From positions 1 to 4,388 of IMG/VR virus record IMGVR_UViG_2648501437_000021: 4,388 nucleotides of DNA, one strand, 5' to 3'. The notes beneath the pieces were generated by a model. That model saw only the letters and a list, made by a program, of their open reading frames with translations. It made no database searches and was not told the origin of the DNA. Each line of letters begins with the position of its first letter. The first letter of the stretch is position 1. Positions 1 through 4,388 of this stretch are shown piece by piece. This DNA comes from a virus. Its lineage: Duplodnaviria > Heunggongvirae > Uroviricota > Caudoviricetes. Position numbers and translations under genes: made by a program.

Positions 1-2
1 TA

Positions 3-800
3 TCATCAAACCGCCCGACACATTTCAGTTCATGGGCGCGCAGGAGCATTATTCCGGATCGTCTGGCAACCGCTATTCTGAACGCAGCCGGGCGCACCTC
101 AGCCTTCATCAGTGGTAAGGCACCGGAAATCAAACCCTCGCCCGGCGGCAACACGCCATCGGGTCCGTCTGCAGATACGTCCGTTCGCACAATCTCCCTG
201 CTGCCGGCAGCCGGAGAGGCTGCTGCGCAGGGCTGGAGCATTAAAGATGGCGGAATTCAGTTGTCAGATGGTGTATTTAAGATCACCAAGCAGAGCAATA
301 AAACCTGGTCCCTGACGCATCCGGTGGATGACGCAATTACCCTGCTGACACAGGGCGGCAGACTGACCTGTAAGTTCCGCCTGTCAGGCGCACTGACCAA
401 CAATCAGTTCGGGCTGGGGATTTATCTGTATACGGACGCTCCCGTTCCTGACGGCGTGGCGATGACCGGGACCGGTAACCCGTTCCTGATGTCGTACTTC
501 ACCCAGACCACAGACGGCAGAGTGAATCTGATGCATCACAAGAAAGCAGGAAACACAAAGCTGGGCGAGTTCGGCAATTACAGTAACGACTGGCAGACGC
601 TGGAACTGGTGTTCACCGCCGGCAGTGCCACGGTTACTCCGAAACTGAATGGAGTGGCTGGCCCGGCATTCCAGGTCATAAAAGACAGTCTGACACTGGG
701 ACTGAATGCGCTGACGCTGACGGATATTACAAAAAATGCAGCGTATGGCGTTGAGATAGAAAGTCTGGTGCTGGAGATAAATGCACCGGCATCATCATAA
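3..800 (+). CDS. 3'-terminal part of a larger late-region gene (5' end outside window); Pro/Gly/Ser-rich linker followed by a ~200-aa C-terminal domain of unknown function
   Basis: Frame 3 is open from the first base to TAA at 798-800, with no in-frame stop or ATG/GTG/TTG before the TTG at 261, so the listed 261..800 ORF is the tail of a longer gene. Codon usage is enterobacterial (ccg, ctg, gcc, ggc, acc). Residues encoded around nt 120-180 (APEIKPSPGGNTPSGPSADTS) look like an interdomain linker. It sits directly upstream of the holin, the position where lambdoid phages carry morons such as stx and nanS-p. Product identity not established. Confidence 0.7.
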   Translation, partial: SSNRPTHFSSWARRSIIPDRLATAILNAAGRTSAFISGKAPEIKPSPGGNTPSGPSADTSVRTISLLPAAGEAAAQGWSIKDGGIQLSDGVFKITKQSNKTWSLTHPVDDAITLLTQGGRLTCKFRLSGALTNNQFGLGIYLYTDAPVPDGVAMTGTGNPFLMSYFTQTTDGRVNLMHHKKAGNTKLGEFGNYSNDWQTLELVFTAGSATVTPKLNGVAGPAFQVIKDSLTLGLNALTLTDITKNAAYGVEIESLVLEINAPASS

Positions 801-883
801 AAAGTGAGCCAGCCAAATGGAAGGTATCGTTAAACTCACCGGTAGTGTCAGTGGGTCGTCTGAGACGCCTGCATGAGTTATCA

Positions 884-914
884 GAGCCATCAGTACTTAA
901 CTGGTGGCTTTTTT
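884..914 (+). terminator. Rho-independent terminator between the upstream gene and the holin
   Basis: AGCCATCAG (884-892) pairs with CTGGTGGCT (900-908) as a 9-bp stem with one G-U wobble, 7-nt loop TACTTAA, followed by a T6 run at 909-914. Confidence 0.6.
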
Positions 915-950
915 TATTGTTGTCAGCTTCCGGATAACGGGAGACGGGGT

Positions 951-1166
951 ATGGACCAGATGGAAAAAATCACAACAGGTGTGTCATACACCACGTCAGC
1001 GGTGGGAACGGGATACTGGTTACTGCAGCTGCTGGACAAAGTCTCCCCGTCCCAGTGGGCGGCAATAGGCGTGCTGGGGAGTCTGCTGTTTGGCCTGCTG
1101 ACATATCTGACTAACCTGTATTTCAAAATCAGAGAGGACCGGCGTAAGGCGGCGCGGGGAGAGTAA
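951..1166 (+). CDS. S: Class II holin of the phage 21 S type (pinholin), 71 aa, with Met1/Met4 dual-start motif
   Basis: [71 protein letters not shown] is near-colinear with phage 21 S as I recall it: weakly hydrophobic Gly/Ala-rich TMD1 (SAR-like), TMD2, and the same charged C-terminus [17 protein letters not shown] at 940-943 lies 7 nt upstream of ATG 951; a second in-frame ATG is at 960. The listed 873 start is an upstream extension through the terminator hairpin with no RBS. Confidence 0.85.
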
Positions 1167-1170
1167 AGCG

Positions 1171-1515
1171 ATGAAGAAAAAATACGAACTGGTTGTTAAA
1201 GGGATAAATAATTACCCGAATAAGATTACTGTTACTGTGGCACTGGAAATTGGTGGGTATCCGTCACTGTTGTTGCCAGATGTGGCGATTAGTCTTGACC
1301 GTACTGAAGATGCCACGCTGGAGTTTTACGAAGCTGAGGCGAAAAAGCAGGCGAAGCAGTTTTTCATGGATGTTGCTGCCGGGTTATGTGAAGGGGATGG
1401 TCCGTTGCCGGAAAAGCGCCCCGTAATTTTAGAGGCGCAGGATGTGTTGATAACCTACAGAGGAAAACTACCGGGAATAATTACTGGTTCTCTGAAGACT
1501 CCACCGCTGGCCTGA
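1171..1515 (+). CDS. Hypothetical 114-aa soluble acidic protein inserted between holin and endolysin
   Basis: ATG lies 4 nt after the holin stop (TAA 1164-1166), suggesting translational coupling. Clean ORF with enterobacterial codon usage, no signal peptide or TM segment. Position and size resemble small uncharacterised ORFs found between holin and endolysin in some E. coli lambdoid prophages (e.g. ydfR of Qin); homology not verified. Confidence 0.65.
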   Translation: MKKKYELVVKGINNYPNKITVTVALEIGGYPSLLLPDVAISLDRTEDATLEFYEAEAKKQAKQFFMDVAAGLCEGDGPLPEKRPVILEAQDVLITYRGKLPGIITGSLKTPPLA

Positions 1516-1565
1516 AGACTTAACATATCCAGGGATTTGAAATCGATAAACCCTGATAAATATCC

Positions 1566-2099
1566 ATGAACACAAAAATCAAATACGGCCTGTCGGCTGC
1601 CGTTCTGGCGCTGATTGCCGCAGGTGCGCCTGCGCCTGAAATCCTCGACCAGTTTCTGGATGAAAAGGAAGGCAACCACACCACGGCATACCGTGATGGC
1701 GCAGGTATCTGGACCATCTGCCGCGGTGCCATCATGGTGGATAGCAAACCTGTCGTCCCGGGCATGAAGTTGTCGAAGGAAAAATGCGACCAGGTTAACG
1801 CCATTGAACGTGATAAAGCGCTGGCATGGGTGGAGAAAAACATCAAAGTGCCACTGACCGAACCCCAGAAAGCGGGGATCGCGTCATTCTGTCCGTACAA
1901 CATTGGTCCCGGTAAATGTTTCCCGTCGACGTTTTACAGACGAATTAATGCAGGTGATCGCAGGGGAGCGTGTGAGGCGATTCGCTGGTGGATTAAGGAC
2001 GGTGGCAGAGACTGCCGTATTCGCTCAAATAACTGTTACGGTCAGGTATCCCGTCGCGACCAGGAGAGTGCGCTGGCGTGCTGGGGAATTGACAGATAA
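1566..2099 (+). CDS. R: SAR endolysin, T4-lysozyme-like muramidase (GH24), 177 aa
   Basis: N-terminal Gly/Ala-rich weakly hydrophobic SAR domain (YGLSAAVLALIAAGAPAP) without Cys. Catalytic triad in canonical T4L spacing: E35 (EGNHTT), D44 (RDG), T50 (GIWT). C-terminal region resembles phage 21 R / P1 Lyz family. Paired with a pinholin upstream, as expected for pinholin-SAR lysis systems. Confidence 0.9.
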   Translation: MNTKIKYGLSAAVLALIAAGAPAPEILDQFLDEKEGNHTTAYRDGAGIWTICRGAIMVDSKPVVPGMKLSKEKCDQVNAIERDKALAWVEKNIKVPLTEPQKAGIASFCPYNIGPGKCFPSTFYRRINAGDRRGACEAIRWWIKDGGRDCRIRSNNCYGQVSRRDQESALACWGIDR

Positions 2100-2188
2100 G
2101 CAGAATATTTTGCTGAAAAATGCGGTTTGCTCACACGGACGGATAACACGAAATCCTGAGAACTGACAAAAACTAAGTGAATAAAAGT

Positions 2189-2228
2189 AAAACCCCCATT
2201 TGTTGGCTGCAAGCGGGGTTTTGTGTTT
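2189..2228 (+). terminator. Hairpin with flanking A- and T-tracts downstream of the endolysin; possible weak or bidirectional terminator or RNA processing structure
   Basis: AAAACCCC (2189-2196) pairs with GGGGTTTT (2215-2222) around an 18-nt loop that has an internal TTG/CAA mini-stem, followed by a T-rich tail to 2228 (TTTTGTGTTT). Stem is short, so termination efficiency is uncertain. Confidence 0.3.
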
Positions 2229-2258
2229 CCTGACTCCGGAAAAGTCAAAGGAGAAAGT

Positions 2259-2396
2259 GTGTTTGATTTTAGCAAACTGATTCGGGAGATTCGAGTGATG
2301 GCTGAAAAATTATCCACCTGGAAGTTCATCCTTATCTGGCTGGTGTTTGTGATTATGGCCTCCGGTTATTTCATCGGTCAGATACGCTGGTGGTGA
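2259..2396 (+). CDS. Candidate small single-pass membrane peptide (45 codons) between endolysin and Rz; not in the supplied ORF track
   Basis: Consensus SD AAGGAG (2248-2253) lies 5 nt upstream of GTG 2259. The ORF reads (M)FDFSKLIREIRVMAEKLSTWKFILIWLVFVIMASGYFIGQIRWW and stops at TGA 2394-2396, one base before the Rz ATG (2398). It has a ~20-residue hydrophobic segment flanked by charged and aromatic residues. An alternative start is ATG 2298 (32 aa). Confidence 0.4.
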   Translation: MFDFSKLIREIRVMAEKLSTWKFILIWLVFVIMASGYFIGQIRWW

Positions 2397-2397
2397 A

Positions 2398-2892
2398 ATG
2401 AACCGCGTACTGTGCGTGGTCATCATTGCCCTGCTGGTGGCCTGTGGTGCGCTTAGTCTGGGGCTGAATCATTACCGTGATAACGCCATAACCTACAAAG
2501 AGCAGCGCGATAAAAAAGTCAGTGAGCTGGAGCTGGCAAATGCAACCATTACTGATATGCAGCAGCGCCAGCGTGATGTTGCTGCACTTGATGCCAGATA
2601 CTCGAGGGAATTAGCCGATGCGAGAGCTGAAAATGAAACTCTTCGCGCTGACGTTGCCGCTGGTCACCGCAGCCTGCGGATCAACGCCACCTGTCCAGGT
2701 CCCGTGCGTGAAGCCACCGGCACCGCCCGCGTGGATAATGCAACCGGCCCCCAACTGGCAGACACCGTTACACGGGATTATTTCACCCTCAGAGAGCGGC
2801 TGATGACGATGCAGAAGCAACTGGAAGGGGCACAGGACTATATCCGCACTCAGTGTACTAAGCAGGCTTTTTATTATCCGGAGGATGTATGA
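2398..2892 (+). CDS. Rz: Rz i-spanin (inner-membrane spanin subunit), 164 aa
   Basis: N-terminal TMD (VLCVVIIALLVACGALSLGL) followed by a coiled-coil-prone periplasmic domain; extensive colinearity with lambda Rz as recalled (NHYRDNAITYK.QRDK, ITDMQ.RQRDVAALDA, ERDYFTLRERL.TMQKQLEG). Confidence 0.9.
   Translation: MNRVLCVVIIALLVACGALSLGLNHYRDNAITYKEQRDKKVSELELANATITDMQQRQRDVAALDARYSRELADARAENETLRADVAAGHRSLRINATCPGPVREATGTARVDNATGPQLADTVTRDYFTLRERLMTMQKQLEGAQDYIRTQCTKQAFYYPEDV
2618..2803 (+). CDS. Rz1: Rz1 o-spanin (outer-membrane lipoprotein spanin subunit), embedded in the +1 frame of Rz
   Basis: Lipoprotein signal peptide with lipobox ending ...LVTAAC, then a proline-rich mature region (CVKPPAPPAWIMQPAPNWQTPLHGIISPSESG) closely matching lambda Rz1 as recalled. 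Lies entirely inside Rz in a different frame. Start could be ATG 2618 (lambda-like length to the lipobox Cys) or ATG 2633. Confidence 0.85.
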   Translation: MRELKMKLFALTLPLVTAACGSTPPVQVPCVKPPAPPAWIMQPAPNWQTPLHGIISPSESG

Positions 2893-3113
2893 AGAAATTG
2901 CAGGTAACGGTAAAACCTTTTCAGGGAACAATTCCGTTCCGTGTTTTGCAACATGGCCGTGTTCTGCTTGAAGAGGTGTTCAGAGGTAAATGCACTGAAT
3001 GTTATTCACGAACATATGAAGTGAATGCCACGCATGAAGAATTCACCGTTGAGTGTGTGATGAATACTGATAAATGCCGAATGGTATCCGCTGAATTACA
3101 GCCAGTGTGTTGA
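2889..3113 (+). CDS. Small Cys-rich hypothetical protein (74 aa), translationally coupled to Rz
   Basis: ATG 2889 overlaps the Rz stop (ATGA overlap, TGA 2890-2892). GGAGG at 2879-2883 lies 5 nt upstream. No signal peptide. Five cysteines including a CxxC pair (GKCTEC) plus C56, C63 and a C-terminal Cys, suggesting a small metal-binding or redox fold. No family recognised. Confidence 0.65.
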   Translation: MKKLQVTVKPFQGTIPFRVLQHGRVLLEEVFRGKCTECYSRTYEVNATHEEFTVECVMNTDKCRMVSAELQPVC

Positions 3114-3394
3114 GCGACCTTATTATCCATGCGCGGTATTGTCGCCGTATTCCTGCATTAACAGAGACCGCAGCCCGACAGGGAGACTCCTCTGCGAGAG
3201 TGTGCGGGGATAATCAAAAACGATACACACCGGGGTTTACCGCGTAAACGGAGCGCGGCGTTGTCCCCTCATGGTCGCTGGTCCGGTGCGATGGTGGAAG
3301 AAACCGGACGATGTGTTACCTCGCAAACTCTGTTATGTCATGTGTCTGATTTGTGATTTAAGTCGGATAATTGTCATTGCCATTAAGCAGAGGA

Positions 3395-3437
3395 TTGATG
3401 ACCGACAGGGCTGCATTGTTAGAATAAGACTTATTCT
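3395..3437 (+). promoter_or_regulatory. Candidate sigma70 promoter with a palindrome over the -10 region, upstream of the lipoprotein gene
   Basis: TTGATG (3395-3400) as -35 and TAGAAT (3420-3425) as -10, with a suboptimal 19-bp spacer. The -10 is embedded in a perfect inverted repeat AGAATAAG-a-CTTATTCT (3421-3437). AT-rich context about 20-60 bp upstream of the lipoprotein start. Confidence 0.25.
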
Positions 3438-3457
3438 TATCTATGCCGGGAATAAAA

Positions 3458-3784
3458 ATGAAAAGAAATCTTCCGTTAATTATTTTGTTGTCTTCTTTGG
3501 TTATGGGCTGTACGCAACATAAAACAGATATGCCTCGACAGTTGGTTAAGGCATTACCACAATATCCGGCCTATGCCGCGGCAAATTATATAAAGGGACG
3601 GGTTGATGTGAAGTTTGATATTGGTGCTGATGGTACTGTCACCCGAATTGAGTTTATCCGTTCAGAGCCGCACCATCTGTTTGATGAGCAGGTTGTAAAG
3701 GCGATGGCAAAATGGCGATTTGAGAAGGACAAGCCGCGTAAAGGCGTGAAGAAAACATTTATCTTTAGTCCTTCAGCACCCTGA
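3458..3784 (+). CDS. Lipoprotein consisting of a TonB C-terminal domain (TonB_C fold), 108 aa; predicted outer-membrane anchored
   Basis: Signal peptide MKRNLPLIILLSSLVMGC with lipobox VMG-C and Thr at +2 (no Asp, so Lol sorting to the outer membrane is predicted). The mature part, LPQYPAYAAANYIKGRVDVKFDIGADGTVTRIEFIRSEPHHLFDEQVVKAMAKWRFEKDKPRKGVKKTFIF, aligns motif-for-motif with the E. coli TonB C-terminal domain as recalled (PQYPA, G.V.VKFD, DG.V, S.P, F, V..AM..WR.E..KP). GGGA at 3449-3452 lies 5 nt upstream of ATG 3458; the listed 3443 start lacks an RBS. Confidence 0.8.
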   Translation: MKRNLPLIILLSSLVMGCTQHKTDMPRQLVKALPQYPAYAAANYIKGRVDVKFDIGADGTVTRIEFIRSEPHHLFDEQVVKAMAKWRFEKDKPRKGVKKTFIFSPSAP

Positions 3785-4241
3785 TTATTTTATCAGAAGT
3801 TAATTATCACTCTGTTGCTATTCAGTACATCCCTGCAGGGTAAAGTCTTGTTTCGCCGGATATGAAGATGAAATATTGTTAGAAGACAGTAGCTACCGGT
3901 TCCTGTAACCGAACGTTCATTTCTCGTTATTTTTCATGCTGGCCGGGCGCAGGTGCTTTGCATCTGTTGCCAGCCTTCTCCTGCAGGCTTCAATAACCCA
4001 TGCCGAAAAATTACCCGATCCCTTACGTTCAAGGGCAATATGGATTTGATTAATCATCTGGTTTGGGAAGCTTTATTTTTTGATGACATTGTGTTTTTCC
4101 GTGTTCAGTGCTGCTGATTTGTATTGTCTTAAGATGTCTTTACGTTAAGTTGACACAGATCAATTAATGCATGACTTGGACAAAATTGATTATTTGTCGT
4201 GGTTTTATGGTGTACGTGGGATGTGTGATGGTATTTATATA

Positions 4242-4388
4242 AATGATAATTATTATCATTTATTGGGTCCTTTCCGGCGATCCGGCAGGCTACGGGGCGG
4301 CGACCTCGCGGGTTTTCGCTATTTATGAAAATTTTCCGGTTTAAGGCGTTTCCGTTCTTCTTCGTCGTAACTTAATGTTTTTATTTAA
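4242..4388 (+). other. Lambda-type cos region (cosQ-side palindrome, cosN, start of cosB); continues beyond the window
   Basis: From 4295 to 4388 the sequence matches the left end of phage lambda as I recall it (GGGCGGCGACCTCGCGGGTTTTCGCTATTTATGAAAATTTTCCGGTTTAAGGCGTTTCCGTTCTTCTTCGTC.TAACTTAATGTTTTTATTTAA) with one mismatch. The sequence just upstream (GGTCCTTTCCGG.GATCCG.CAGG.TACG) resembles the lambda right end. An 8-bp inverted repeat ATGATAAT-t-ATTATCAT lies at 4242-4258. Confidence 0.8.
4295..4306 (+). other. cosN cohesive-end sequence (12-nt GGGCGGCGACCT)
   Basis: Exact match to the lambda 12-nt cohesive end as recalled, in the expected context between the right-end-like and left-end-like flanks. 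Confidence 0.75.

Follow-up and report, generated by a model that had tools for sequence, protein, structure and literature searches.

A prophage gene of the Rz-to-cos interval encodes a predicted lipoprotein with a bare TonB C-terminal domain

Results

The DNA analysed here, referred to as the window, is a stretch of 4,388 bases (positions 1 to 4,388 of the IMG/VR record IMGVR_UViG_2648501437_000021, a virus of the Caudoviricetes), and the subject of this report is a short gene near its end that codes for a predicted lipoprotein with a TonB C-terminal (TonB_C) domain. Pfam matches and the list of open reading frames (ORFs) identified the window as the late-gene end of a lambdoid prophage that resembles the Shiga toxin (Stx) phages (Table 1). 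The TonB_C lipoprotein gene lies within the accessory interval between Rz and cos, after a complete lysis cassette of holin, endolysin and Rz/Rz1, the last two of which are the true spanin pair of that cassette. This is where a first-pass annotation of the sequence had placed it, and the arrangement is matched in phage 21, in which bor and the TonB_C lipoprotein gene stand side by side in the same interval before cos. The interval closes at GGGCGGCGACCT, which we take to be the lambda left cohesive end, and in an identical prophage region the RefSeq annotation places a DNA-packaging gene after the cohesive end.

Table 1. Features of the window, with positions counted from its first base.
Feature	Position	Strand	Evidence
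DUF6645/SASA esterase, C-terminal part	up to 800	+	Pfam
P21-type holin	951-1166	+	Pfam
DUF1327/YdfR protein	1171-1515	+	Pfam
Phage lysozyme (endolysin)	1566-2099	+	Pfam
ORF of 57 amino acids between lysozyme and Rz, C-terminal half hydrophobic	2223-2396		no Pfam match
Rz i-spanin	2398-2892	+	PF03245, E 1e-47
Rz1 o-spanin, embedded in Rz	2618-2803	+	PF06085, E 1.7e-20
Cys-rich ORF of 74 amino acids, start overlapping the Rz stop	2889-3113	+	no Pfam match, no PADLOC match
AT-rich non-coding upstream region	3301-3457	+	39.5% G+C, against 49% for the whole window
Candidate sigma-70 promoter, ATGACC-16 nt-TAGAAT with TG extension	3398-3425	+	pattern scan; ~33 nt upstream of the ATG
TonB_C lipoprotein coding sequence, 108 amino acids, stop included	3458-3784	+	ORF, Pfam, PDB matches, RefSeq
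Predicted signal peptidase II signal peptide, residues 1-18	3458-3511	+	PROSITE PS51257-type rule
Short tether, residues 19-33 (TQHKTDMPRQLVKAL)	3512-3556	+	model confidence (pLDDT), start of alignment
TonB_C domain, residues 34-101 (Pfam)	3557-3760	+	Pfam, TIGRFAM, phmmer, AlphaFold2; structural match to ~residue 104
Convergent DUF3950 ORF of 46 amino acids, between the TonB_C lipoprotein gene and cos	3917-4057	-	PF13132, E 8e-19; annotated in RefSeq
Lambda-type cohesive end, cosN left end (GGGCGGCGACCT)	4295-4306	+	exact, unique match; closes the accessory interval

The reading frame ends with a TGA stop at 3782-3784, and its start is preceded by a weak Shine-Dalgarno sequence, GGGA, at 3448-3451. 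An in-frame ATG at 3443 would lengthen the product by five residues and leave the mature protein unaffected. The RefSeq call for a gene that is 100% identical has 108 amino acids (WP_000828067.1, 'TonB family protein').

Lipoprotein signal and tether

The predicted signal peptide, MKRNLPLIILLSSLVMGC, is followed by TQ and consists of an n-region with K2 and R3, a 12-residue hydrophobic core from L5 to M16, and the lipobox V-M-G-C that ends in Cys18. The 108-residue protein passes the PROSITE PS51257-type lipobox rule, as does the Rz1 protein of the window, which served as the positive control. In the Enterobacteriaceae, Asp at position +2 is the Lol-avoidance residue in lipoprotein sorting; the residue found here at +2 is Thr, and Asp is absent. 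The Gly-Cys of the lipobox is invariant in 15 homologues from E. coli and Klebsiella that are 41-98% identical to the protein, and the residue at +2 in these homologues is T, S, A or V and never D. In the wider family described below, a lipobox was recognisable in 13 of 14 members (12 by the PROSITE-type rule, and the Gibbsiella member by the strict pattern [LVI][ASTVI][GAS]C). From its sequence, the protein is predicted to be lipidated and sorted to the outer membrane.

The mature protein has 91 residues, and only 15 of them separate Cys18 from the start of the domain. This leaves no room for the membrane anchor or the proline-rich spacer of TonB, and both are absent, as the first-pass annotation had proposed together with the lipoprotein signal, the short tether and the C-terminal domain itself. 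The segment appears to be a flexible tether: in the AlphaFold2 model the predicted local distance difference test score (pLDDT) is low at residues 19-21 and averages 79 in the block of residues 21-30. In the phmmer comparison, the part that aligns with TonB begins only at residue 24-26. The distance from the Cys to the YP motif of the domain is kept at 14-25 residues across the family. No hydrophobic segment was found at the C-terminus of the 108-residue protein.

The TonB C-terminal domain

The sequence and fold matches to the TonB C-terminal domain are far beyond chance. The match to PF03544 (TonB_C) scored 57.2 bits against a cut-off of 24.6 (E 2.4e-15) and covered residues 34-101, close to the span of ~35-105 that had been expected for it, while TIGR01352 scored 57.1 bits against a cut-off of 27.1 (E 1.7e-15). 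When the protein was compared with PDB sequences by phmmer, the C-terminal domains of E. coli and Salmonella TonB were the best matches (E ~1e-16, residues 26-104), and the identity to the E. coli domain was ~40% over 79 residues. The YP motif (Y36 and P37, corresponding to TonB Y163 and P164) is kept, and so are the counterparts of TonB F180, G186, F202, W213 and F230.

An AlphaFold2 model built on 15 homologues had block-mean pLDDT values of at least 94 across residues 31-100 and showed the three-stranded sheet and two helices of the solved TonB C-terminal domains. The top Foldseek matches of this model were the TonB structures 1u07 (E 5e-8), 2gsk_B and 2grx_C. The root-mean-square deviation (rmsd) was 1.0 A from TonB bound to BtuB (2gsk_B, TMt 0.92) and 1.2 A from TonB bound to FhuA (2grx_C). 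Structures of FusB (C-terminal domain, 9hi3) were also among the fold matches, TolA-like domains matched weakly with E above 0.08, and the BFVD viral structure library gave no significant fold match. The 108-residue protein spans the part of TonB that is ordered in the complexes with BtuB and FhuA, including beta3, the strand with which the TonB box pairs.

The profiles that define TonB as a whole gave a different result. NF008084 scored 74.4 bits against a cut-off of 315 and was matched only at positions 157-240 of its 249, and no TonB equivalog model gave more than 74 bits (cut-offs 265-448), with only the last ~80 positions matched. The protein is thus a complete, bare TonB C-terminal domain behind a lipoprotein signal and not a TonB energy transducer. 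Coupling to ExbB-ExbD, and with it energisation, is impossible because the membrane anchor is absent.

A family of lipoproteins with the same plan

A family of proteins of 107-133 residues that share this plan, in which a lipobox is followed by a tether of 14-25 residues and a TonB_C domain, emerged from exhaustive searching with HMMER and from scanning one set of genomes that represent individual species. Members were found in Salmonella, Klebsiella, Raoultella, Serratia, Erwinia/Pantoea, Rahnella and Gibbsiella, where they are annotated only as 'TonB family protein'. In a neighbour-joining tree the lipoprotein family is separate from the true TonB domains.

The family is not exclusively phage-borne. 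In Serratia grimesii the homologue (5992-6318 of the stretch examined) stands alone in a core chromosomal neighbourhood, with ycgN on one side and dsbB-nhaB-fadR on the other, outside any prophage, and in an Erwinia sp. the homologue (557-913 of the stretch examined) is likewise a single gene of a core chromosomal neighbourhood, outside a prophage and beside araA. Both have the lipoprotein-plus-TonB_C arrangement, with 38-42% identity.

A metagenomic lipoprotein of 152 residues, P0156, has the lipobox LAGC and a C-terminal domain that is 62% identical to that of E. coli TonB, and it groups with the true TonBs. Here a TonB C-terminal domain seems to have been joined to a lipoprotein signal in a separate event. 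One member of the P0156 group is labelled as a metagenome-assembled genome of Streptococcus parasanguinis, which is probably a binning error.

Prevalence, mobility and selection

A blastn survey found the gene in 1616 of 5426 complete E. coli genomes (~30%), full length in all but four of them (1612/1616) and almost always on the chromosome. Two allele types account for these matches. The type of the window (at least 95% identity) occurs in 414 genomes, and a type with ~72% DNA identity to it occurs in 1201; the latter is the gene CPT_21_73 of the classical phage 21 and is also carried by ev017, Perceval and several ECOR phages. The ratio of non-synonymous to synonymous substitution rates (dN/dS) between the window and phage 21 alleles is 0.13, with dS at ~1.5. 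Among 80 window-type loci in IMG/VR there were 18 DNA alleles, all of them intact, with 18 synonymous and 4 non-synonymous variants. The gene is under purifying selection and is functional.

Among phage records that share the flanking DNA, only 15 of 208 carry the gene. In E. coli, the Klebsiella phage ST13-OXA48phi12.4 and a Serratia montpellierensis prophage it always stands after the lysis cassette and before the terminase. Because the flanking lysis cassettes and packaging modules differ between these carriers, the gene travels as a mosaic module. Sporadic presence among related phages and a position at a module boundary are the marks of a moron, which is what the first-pass annotation had called it. 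The carrier phages JLK-2012 and phage 21 have J together with lom or side fibres, and no cor is annotated in them.

All phage records with the phage-21-type allele also carry sitABCD (8968-12417 in the phage 21 record), which encodes an iron and manganese ABC importer that is independent of TonB. This operon is absent from all window-type carriers, and ~18 sit phages are without the TonB_C lipoprotein gene. The co-occurrence is suggestive of an iron theme but may reflect only linkage within one phage lineage. An obligatory link in which sitABCD compensates for the gene was considered and rejected as not general, given the window-type carriers without sitABCD and the many sit phages without the gene.

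Upstream region and expression

The region upstream of the gene is AT-rich (Table 1), as had been noted before, and contains a candidate sigma-70 promoter. The block ATTGT[T/C]AGAATAAGAC, which includes the -10 hexamer, is kept in the phage 21 upstream region, which has otherwise diverged. A perfect 8-1-8 palindrome, AGAATAAGaCTTATTCT, at 3421-3437 overlaps the -10 hexamer of the candidate promoter; the phage 21 allele lacks the right half of it. The palindrome may act as an operator or form a 5' hairpin, peculiar to the window allele. Iron regulation through a Fur box was rejected: the best upstream match has 13 of 19 positions (3423-3441), none lies within three mismatches of the consensus, and the homologue in strain LF82 responds neither to iron nor to growth condition, in contrast to the tonB of its host. 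No intrinsic terminator was found after the gene, and the folding of the downstream sequence was no better than that of shuffled sequences.

Transcript data are available for LF82_160, a homologue with 70% identity that is annotated as 'TonB fragment' in the Perceval prophage of the adherent-invasive E. coli strain LF82. It is among the morons that are transcribed 8-fold above the prophage background (PMC9928086). Its expression, in log2 fragments per kilobase per million (fpkm), was 5.0-6.6 in all five growth conditions, which comprised LB, DMEM and macrophages (PMC9928086, supplementary table), compared with 2.3-4.4 for the Perceval endolysin, Rz and terminase beside it and 4.2-7.2, varying with the condition, for the tonB gene of the host (PMC9928086). 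The Perceval homologue is constitutively transcribed in the lysogen at approximately the level of tonB mRNA, while the surrounding late genes are silent. Transcription in the lytic phase should be expected as well, since the gene points the same way as the late operon. The designation as a moron has backing from the module-boundary position and, for the Perceval homologue, from the published lysogen RNA-seq.

Discussion

Our analysis suggests, with a confidence that stops a little short of even, that the TonB_C lipoprotein acts as a dominant-negative protein which competes with the TonB of the host on the periplasmic side of TonB-dependent transporters. The product of the prophage moron would be an outer-membrane lipoprotein whose folded TonB C-terminal domain is carried by a tether of ~8-15 residues. 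This unpowered domain would occupy the TonB boxes of transporters, and possibly those of incoming colicins, by beta-strand augmentation; in a closely related alternative, the TonB C-terminal domain itself would be trapped as a heterodimer. In both versions the lysogen would gain protection against phages that depend on TonB (T1, phi80 and the lambdoid phages that need FhuA) and against group B colicins and microcins, and would pay for it with some loss of siderophore and B12 uptake. Because the lipid anchor would hold the domain within a few nm of the transporters, it would be in a good position to rival the TonB of the host, of which there is far less. Howard et al. in 2001 reportedly found that C-terminal pieces of TonB placed in the periplasm inhibit functions of FhuA and FecA. 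Binding of the TonB box by the TonB C-terminal domain occurs through beta-augmentation on beta3, directly under the barrel (review PMC11658791). TonB fragments in excess act as competitive inhibitors of energy transduction (Postle preprint 10.1101/2022.09.26.509584). The first-pass annotation had likewise suggested a TonB-box decoy that would exclude T1 and phi80, protect from group B colicins or tune iron uptake, and none of our results contradicts it.

Several observations weigh against this proposal. In the lipoprotein family the TonB transporter-contact position R166 is an invariant Tyr (Tyr39), the contact position Q160 is Leu, Tyr or His (Leu in the window protein), and TonB L170 is replaced by an invariant Asn (Asn43). 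The TonB motif SAxPANMFEREV becomes SEP[QH][HN]LFD in the family, and the start of beta3 is polar (Lys/Thr) where TonB has Val-Val. With such substitutions at contact positions, binding to canonical TonB boxes should not be assumed, and the partner may differ. The gene is also frequent in extraintestinal and invasive strains, whose dependence on siderophores would make a strong general block of TonB costly, and the chromosomal members of the family suggest a housekeeping role in the envelope that is not specifically anti-phage. PADLOC matched no defence model to the gene or to two neighbouring genes, and no report of T1 or phi80 resistance in phage 21 lysogens was found in the literature searched, with older literature lying outside the search. 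The candidate promoter, the sole promoter-like plus-strand site upstream, has 9 of 12 matches, which is no better than shuffled sequences. The contact-site substitutions, the likely cost in siderophore-dependent pathotypes and the chromosomal orphans are the reasons why our confidence in a TonB competitor stays below even, and selective decoys, TonB-domain trapping and a role of the fold in the envelope that is unrelated to TonB are all plausible variants.

The last of these would make the protein an envelope or virulence lipoprotein in which the TonB_C fold has been reused as a protein- or peptidoglycan-binding module, with a role in envelope stabilisation, in serum or stress resistance like that of Bor/Iss, or with a partner specific to the family. 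We regard this as rather unlikely. It would account for the family-invariant residues that differ from TonB at contact positions, for the members in Serratia and Erwinia that lie outside prophages, for the locus shared with bor (both are present in phage 21) and for the constitutive, iron-unresponsive expression in LF82, and TonB_C folds are able to bind partners other than TonB boxes, as in the binding of ferredoxin by the C-terminal domain of FusB (9hi3; PMC13253070). The nearest relatives in both sequence and structure, however, are all true TonB domains in the receptor-bound conformation; the weakness of the TolA-like matches also speaks against such a role, and the neighbouring genes point to no alternative partner. 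A decoy of narrow range, which would capture the TonB boxes of group B colicins and bacteriocins or of one phage-receptor transporter and would largely spare bulk siderophore transport, has in our estimate a rather small chance of being correct. Its strength is that it would explain why the gene is tolerated in ~30% of E. coli, including the siderophore-dependent pathotypes. Dedicated TonB paralogues with a narrow partner range exist (HasB, FusB), and the substitutions at TonB positions 158, 160 and 166 are of a kind that alters partner preference, an argument whose basis is Q160 suppressor genetics. Yet no target can be named from the sequence, and beta-augmentation is mostly mediated by the backbone and hence tends to promiscuity.

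Two further readings follow from existing labels. The full-length match to phrog_1267, 'Rz-like spanin' (E 3e-42), would make the protein a spanin or an accessory protein of lysis, and it is indeed a predicted lipoprotein whose gene lies downstream of the lysis genes and co-oriented with them, where late read-through would be expected. A complete Rz/Rz1 pair is nevertheless already present in the window, in phage 21 and in the Serratia prophage. The folded domain of 75 residues is not the short, proline-rich body of an o-spanin, the C-terminal membrane helix that a unimolecular spanin needs is missing, in the LF82 lysogen Rz and endolysin are silent but the homologue is transcribed, and the chromosomal members are far from any lysis genes. 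The spanin reading is very improbable and was rejected, as the PHROG label is positional and a separate Rz/Rz1 pair is present. The names 'TonB fragment' and 'partial tonB', which several record annotations use, imply instead a non-functional remnant of a captured tonB, and two thirds of TonB are in fact missing. We find this scarcely credible and rejected it on the evidence of selection and conservation: dN/dS is 0.13, synonymous variants outnumber non-synonymous ones by 18 to 4, none of the alleles in 80 loci is disrupted, and the gene is full length in 1612 of its 1616 genome matches. Moreover, a lipoprotein signal that is foreign to tonB has been acquired and conserved, and the homologue is transcribed. 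The phrog_1267 label itself looks like a positional mis-annotation of the TonB_C lipoprotein family, and it will spread into phage annotations.

Comparison with known systems shows where a TonB competitor would stand. The protein shares with E. coli TonB (P02929, ~153-233) the same Pfam and TIGRFAM domain, ~40% identity, a fold within 1.0-1.3 A rmsd and the conserved residues listed above. Unlike TonB, it is phage-borne and a predicted lipoprotein, has neither the N-terminal membrane helix nor the proline-rich spacer nor coupling to ExbB-ExbD, and differs in R166 to Tyr, in Q160 to Leu and in its own SEPxxLFD motif. Its proposed mechanism is that of the engineered periplasmic TonB C-terminal fragments, namely an isolated, unenergised domain in the periplasm; whereas those fragments are soluble laboratory constructs of TonB, the window protein is natural, ~40% identical, predicted to be tethered to the outer membrane, prophage-borne and under purifying selection. 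HasB and FusB are comparable as diverged TonB_C domains with narrowed or altered partners, but both are anchored and energised, which the window protein cannot be.

Among phage proteins, the closest parallel in outcome is given by Cor (phi80, N15) and Llp (T5), small phage lipoproteins of the outer membrane that inactivate FhuA as a phage receptor, Llp doing so from the inner leaflet of the outer membrane. The likeness is to the class of small phage lipoproteins and, as proposed, to the effect; there is no homology, and Pfam at E up to 1 gives only TonB_C and TonB_2. The action of Cor and Llp is confined to FhuA, but a decoy made of a TonB domain would work through the TonB box, which many transporters have in common. 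Bor/Iss of lambda and its relatives is likewise a lipoprotein moron expressed in the lysogen from the same Rz-to-cos interval, and it adjoins the gene in phage 21 and Perceval. It differs in that its sequence is unrelated, it lies on the opposite strand and it is known for serum resistance.

Many phages, colicins, microcins and 'Trojan horse' antibiotics enter the cell through TonB-dependent transporters, which are also central to iron acquisition in infection. If the protein is a TonB competitor, it would represent a new type of superinfection exclusion that is aimed at a shared energy-coupling step and not at one receptor. As a mobile factor of wide distribution, it would also modify iron uptake and the susceptibility to antibiotics and bacteriocins in pathogenic E. 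coli. It is doubtful, though conceivable, that the full extent of this applies, with a natural, unpowered TonB mimic anchored in the outer membrane gating all TonB-dependent transporters from the periplasm and conferring broad resistance to TonB-dependent phages, group B colicins and microcins on about one third of E. coli. Related lysogens of Klebsiella, Salmonella and Serratia would then be resistant in the same way, and resistance to siderophore-conjugated antibiotics would be possible. Since 1616 of 5426 genomes carry the gene, even a modest phenotype would be relevant to host-range prediction in phage therapy and to the use of sideromycins. If, on the other hand, TonB function is untouched, the protein would show that the TonB_C fold has been put to use as a module of outer-membrane lipoproteins across the Enterobacterales. 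In either case the gene is short and abundant, the hypothesis is simple to test, and the sequence describes a natural, mobile TonB domain with a predicted lipoprotein anchor.

The window-type allele is also carried by the Stx1a-converting phages LC744181-LC744184. The stx1 genes are repressed by Fur and iron. It is a matter of speculation that a TonB inhibitor could raise the expression of the Stx1 toxin in such phages; if all transporters were gated, a lower iron influx could shift traits under Fur control, of which Stx1 production in the Stx1a carriers would be one example.

The gene and its TonB label are already known to the databases, and only a functional study seems to be missing. The remark in the first-pass annotation that it was aware of no described factor of this architecture needs correction, since many records carry the names 'TonB family protein' or 'TonB fragment'. 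Besides 'TonB family protein', the database names include 'TonB C-terminal domain protein' for CPT_21_73 of phage 21 and, in an annotation derived from EDL933, 'partial tonB-like membrane protein ... CP-933N'. The gene is mentioned in passing in the genome announcement of phage 21 (PMC9119081) and, as 'TonB fragment', in the list of LF82 morons of 2023 (PMC9928086). The full-text literature yielded annotation-level mentions only and no functional study, with most subscription journals outside the scope of the search and an older report possible.

Other features of the window

The DUF1327/YdfR-family gene at 1171-1515 lies between the holin and endolysin genes, an odd position for a gene that is not involved in lysis. 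About 345 bp of non-coding DNA separate the 74-residue Cys-rich ORF from the TonB_C lipoprotein gene. The first part of it, 3114-3300, is GC-rich (57.8%) and is partly kept in phage 21 (block GGTGCGATGGTGGAAGAAAC); no Rfam match was found in it, and the equivalent region of another prophage has an annotated hypothetical ORF on the minus strand. A scan of the whole window against Rfam, with E up to 0.1, gave no known RNA element.

Between the DUF3950 ORF and cos, a perfect 7-1-7 palindrome, TGATAATtATTATCA, is present at 4245-4259, 36 bp upstream of the cohesive-end site. It is the core of the Fur-box consensus and agrees with 15 of the 19 positions of the 19-bp consensus. Lambda has a near-identical counterpart of this palindrome at the same place near cos.

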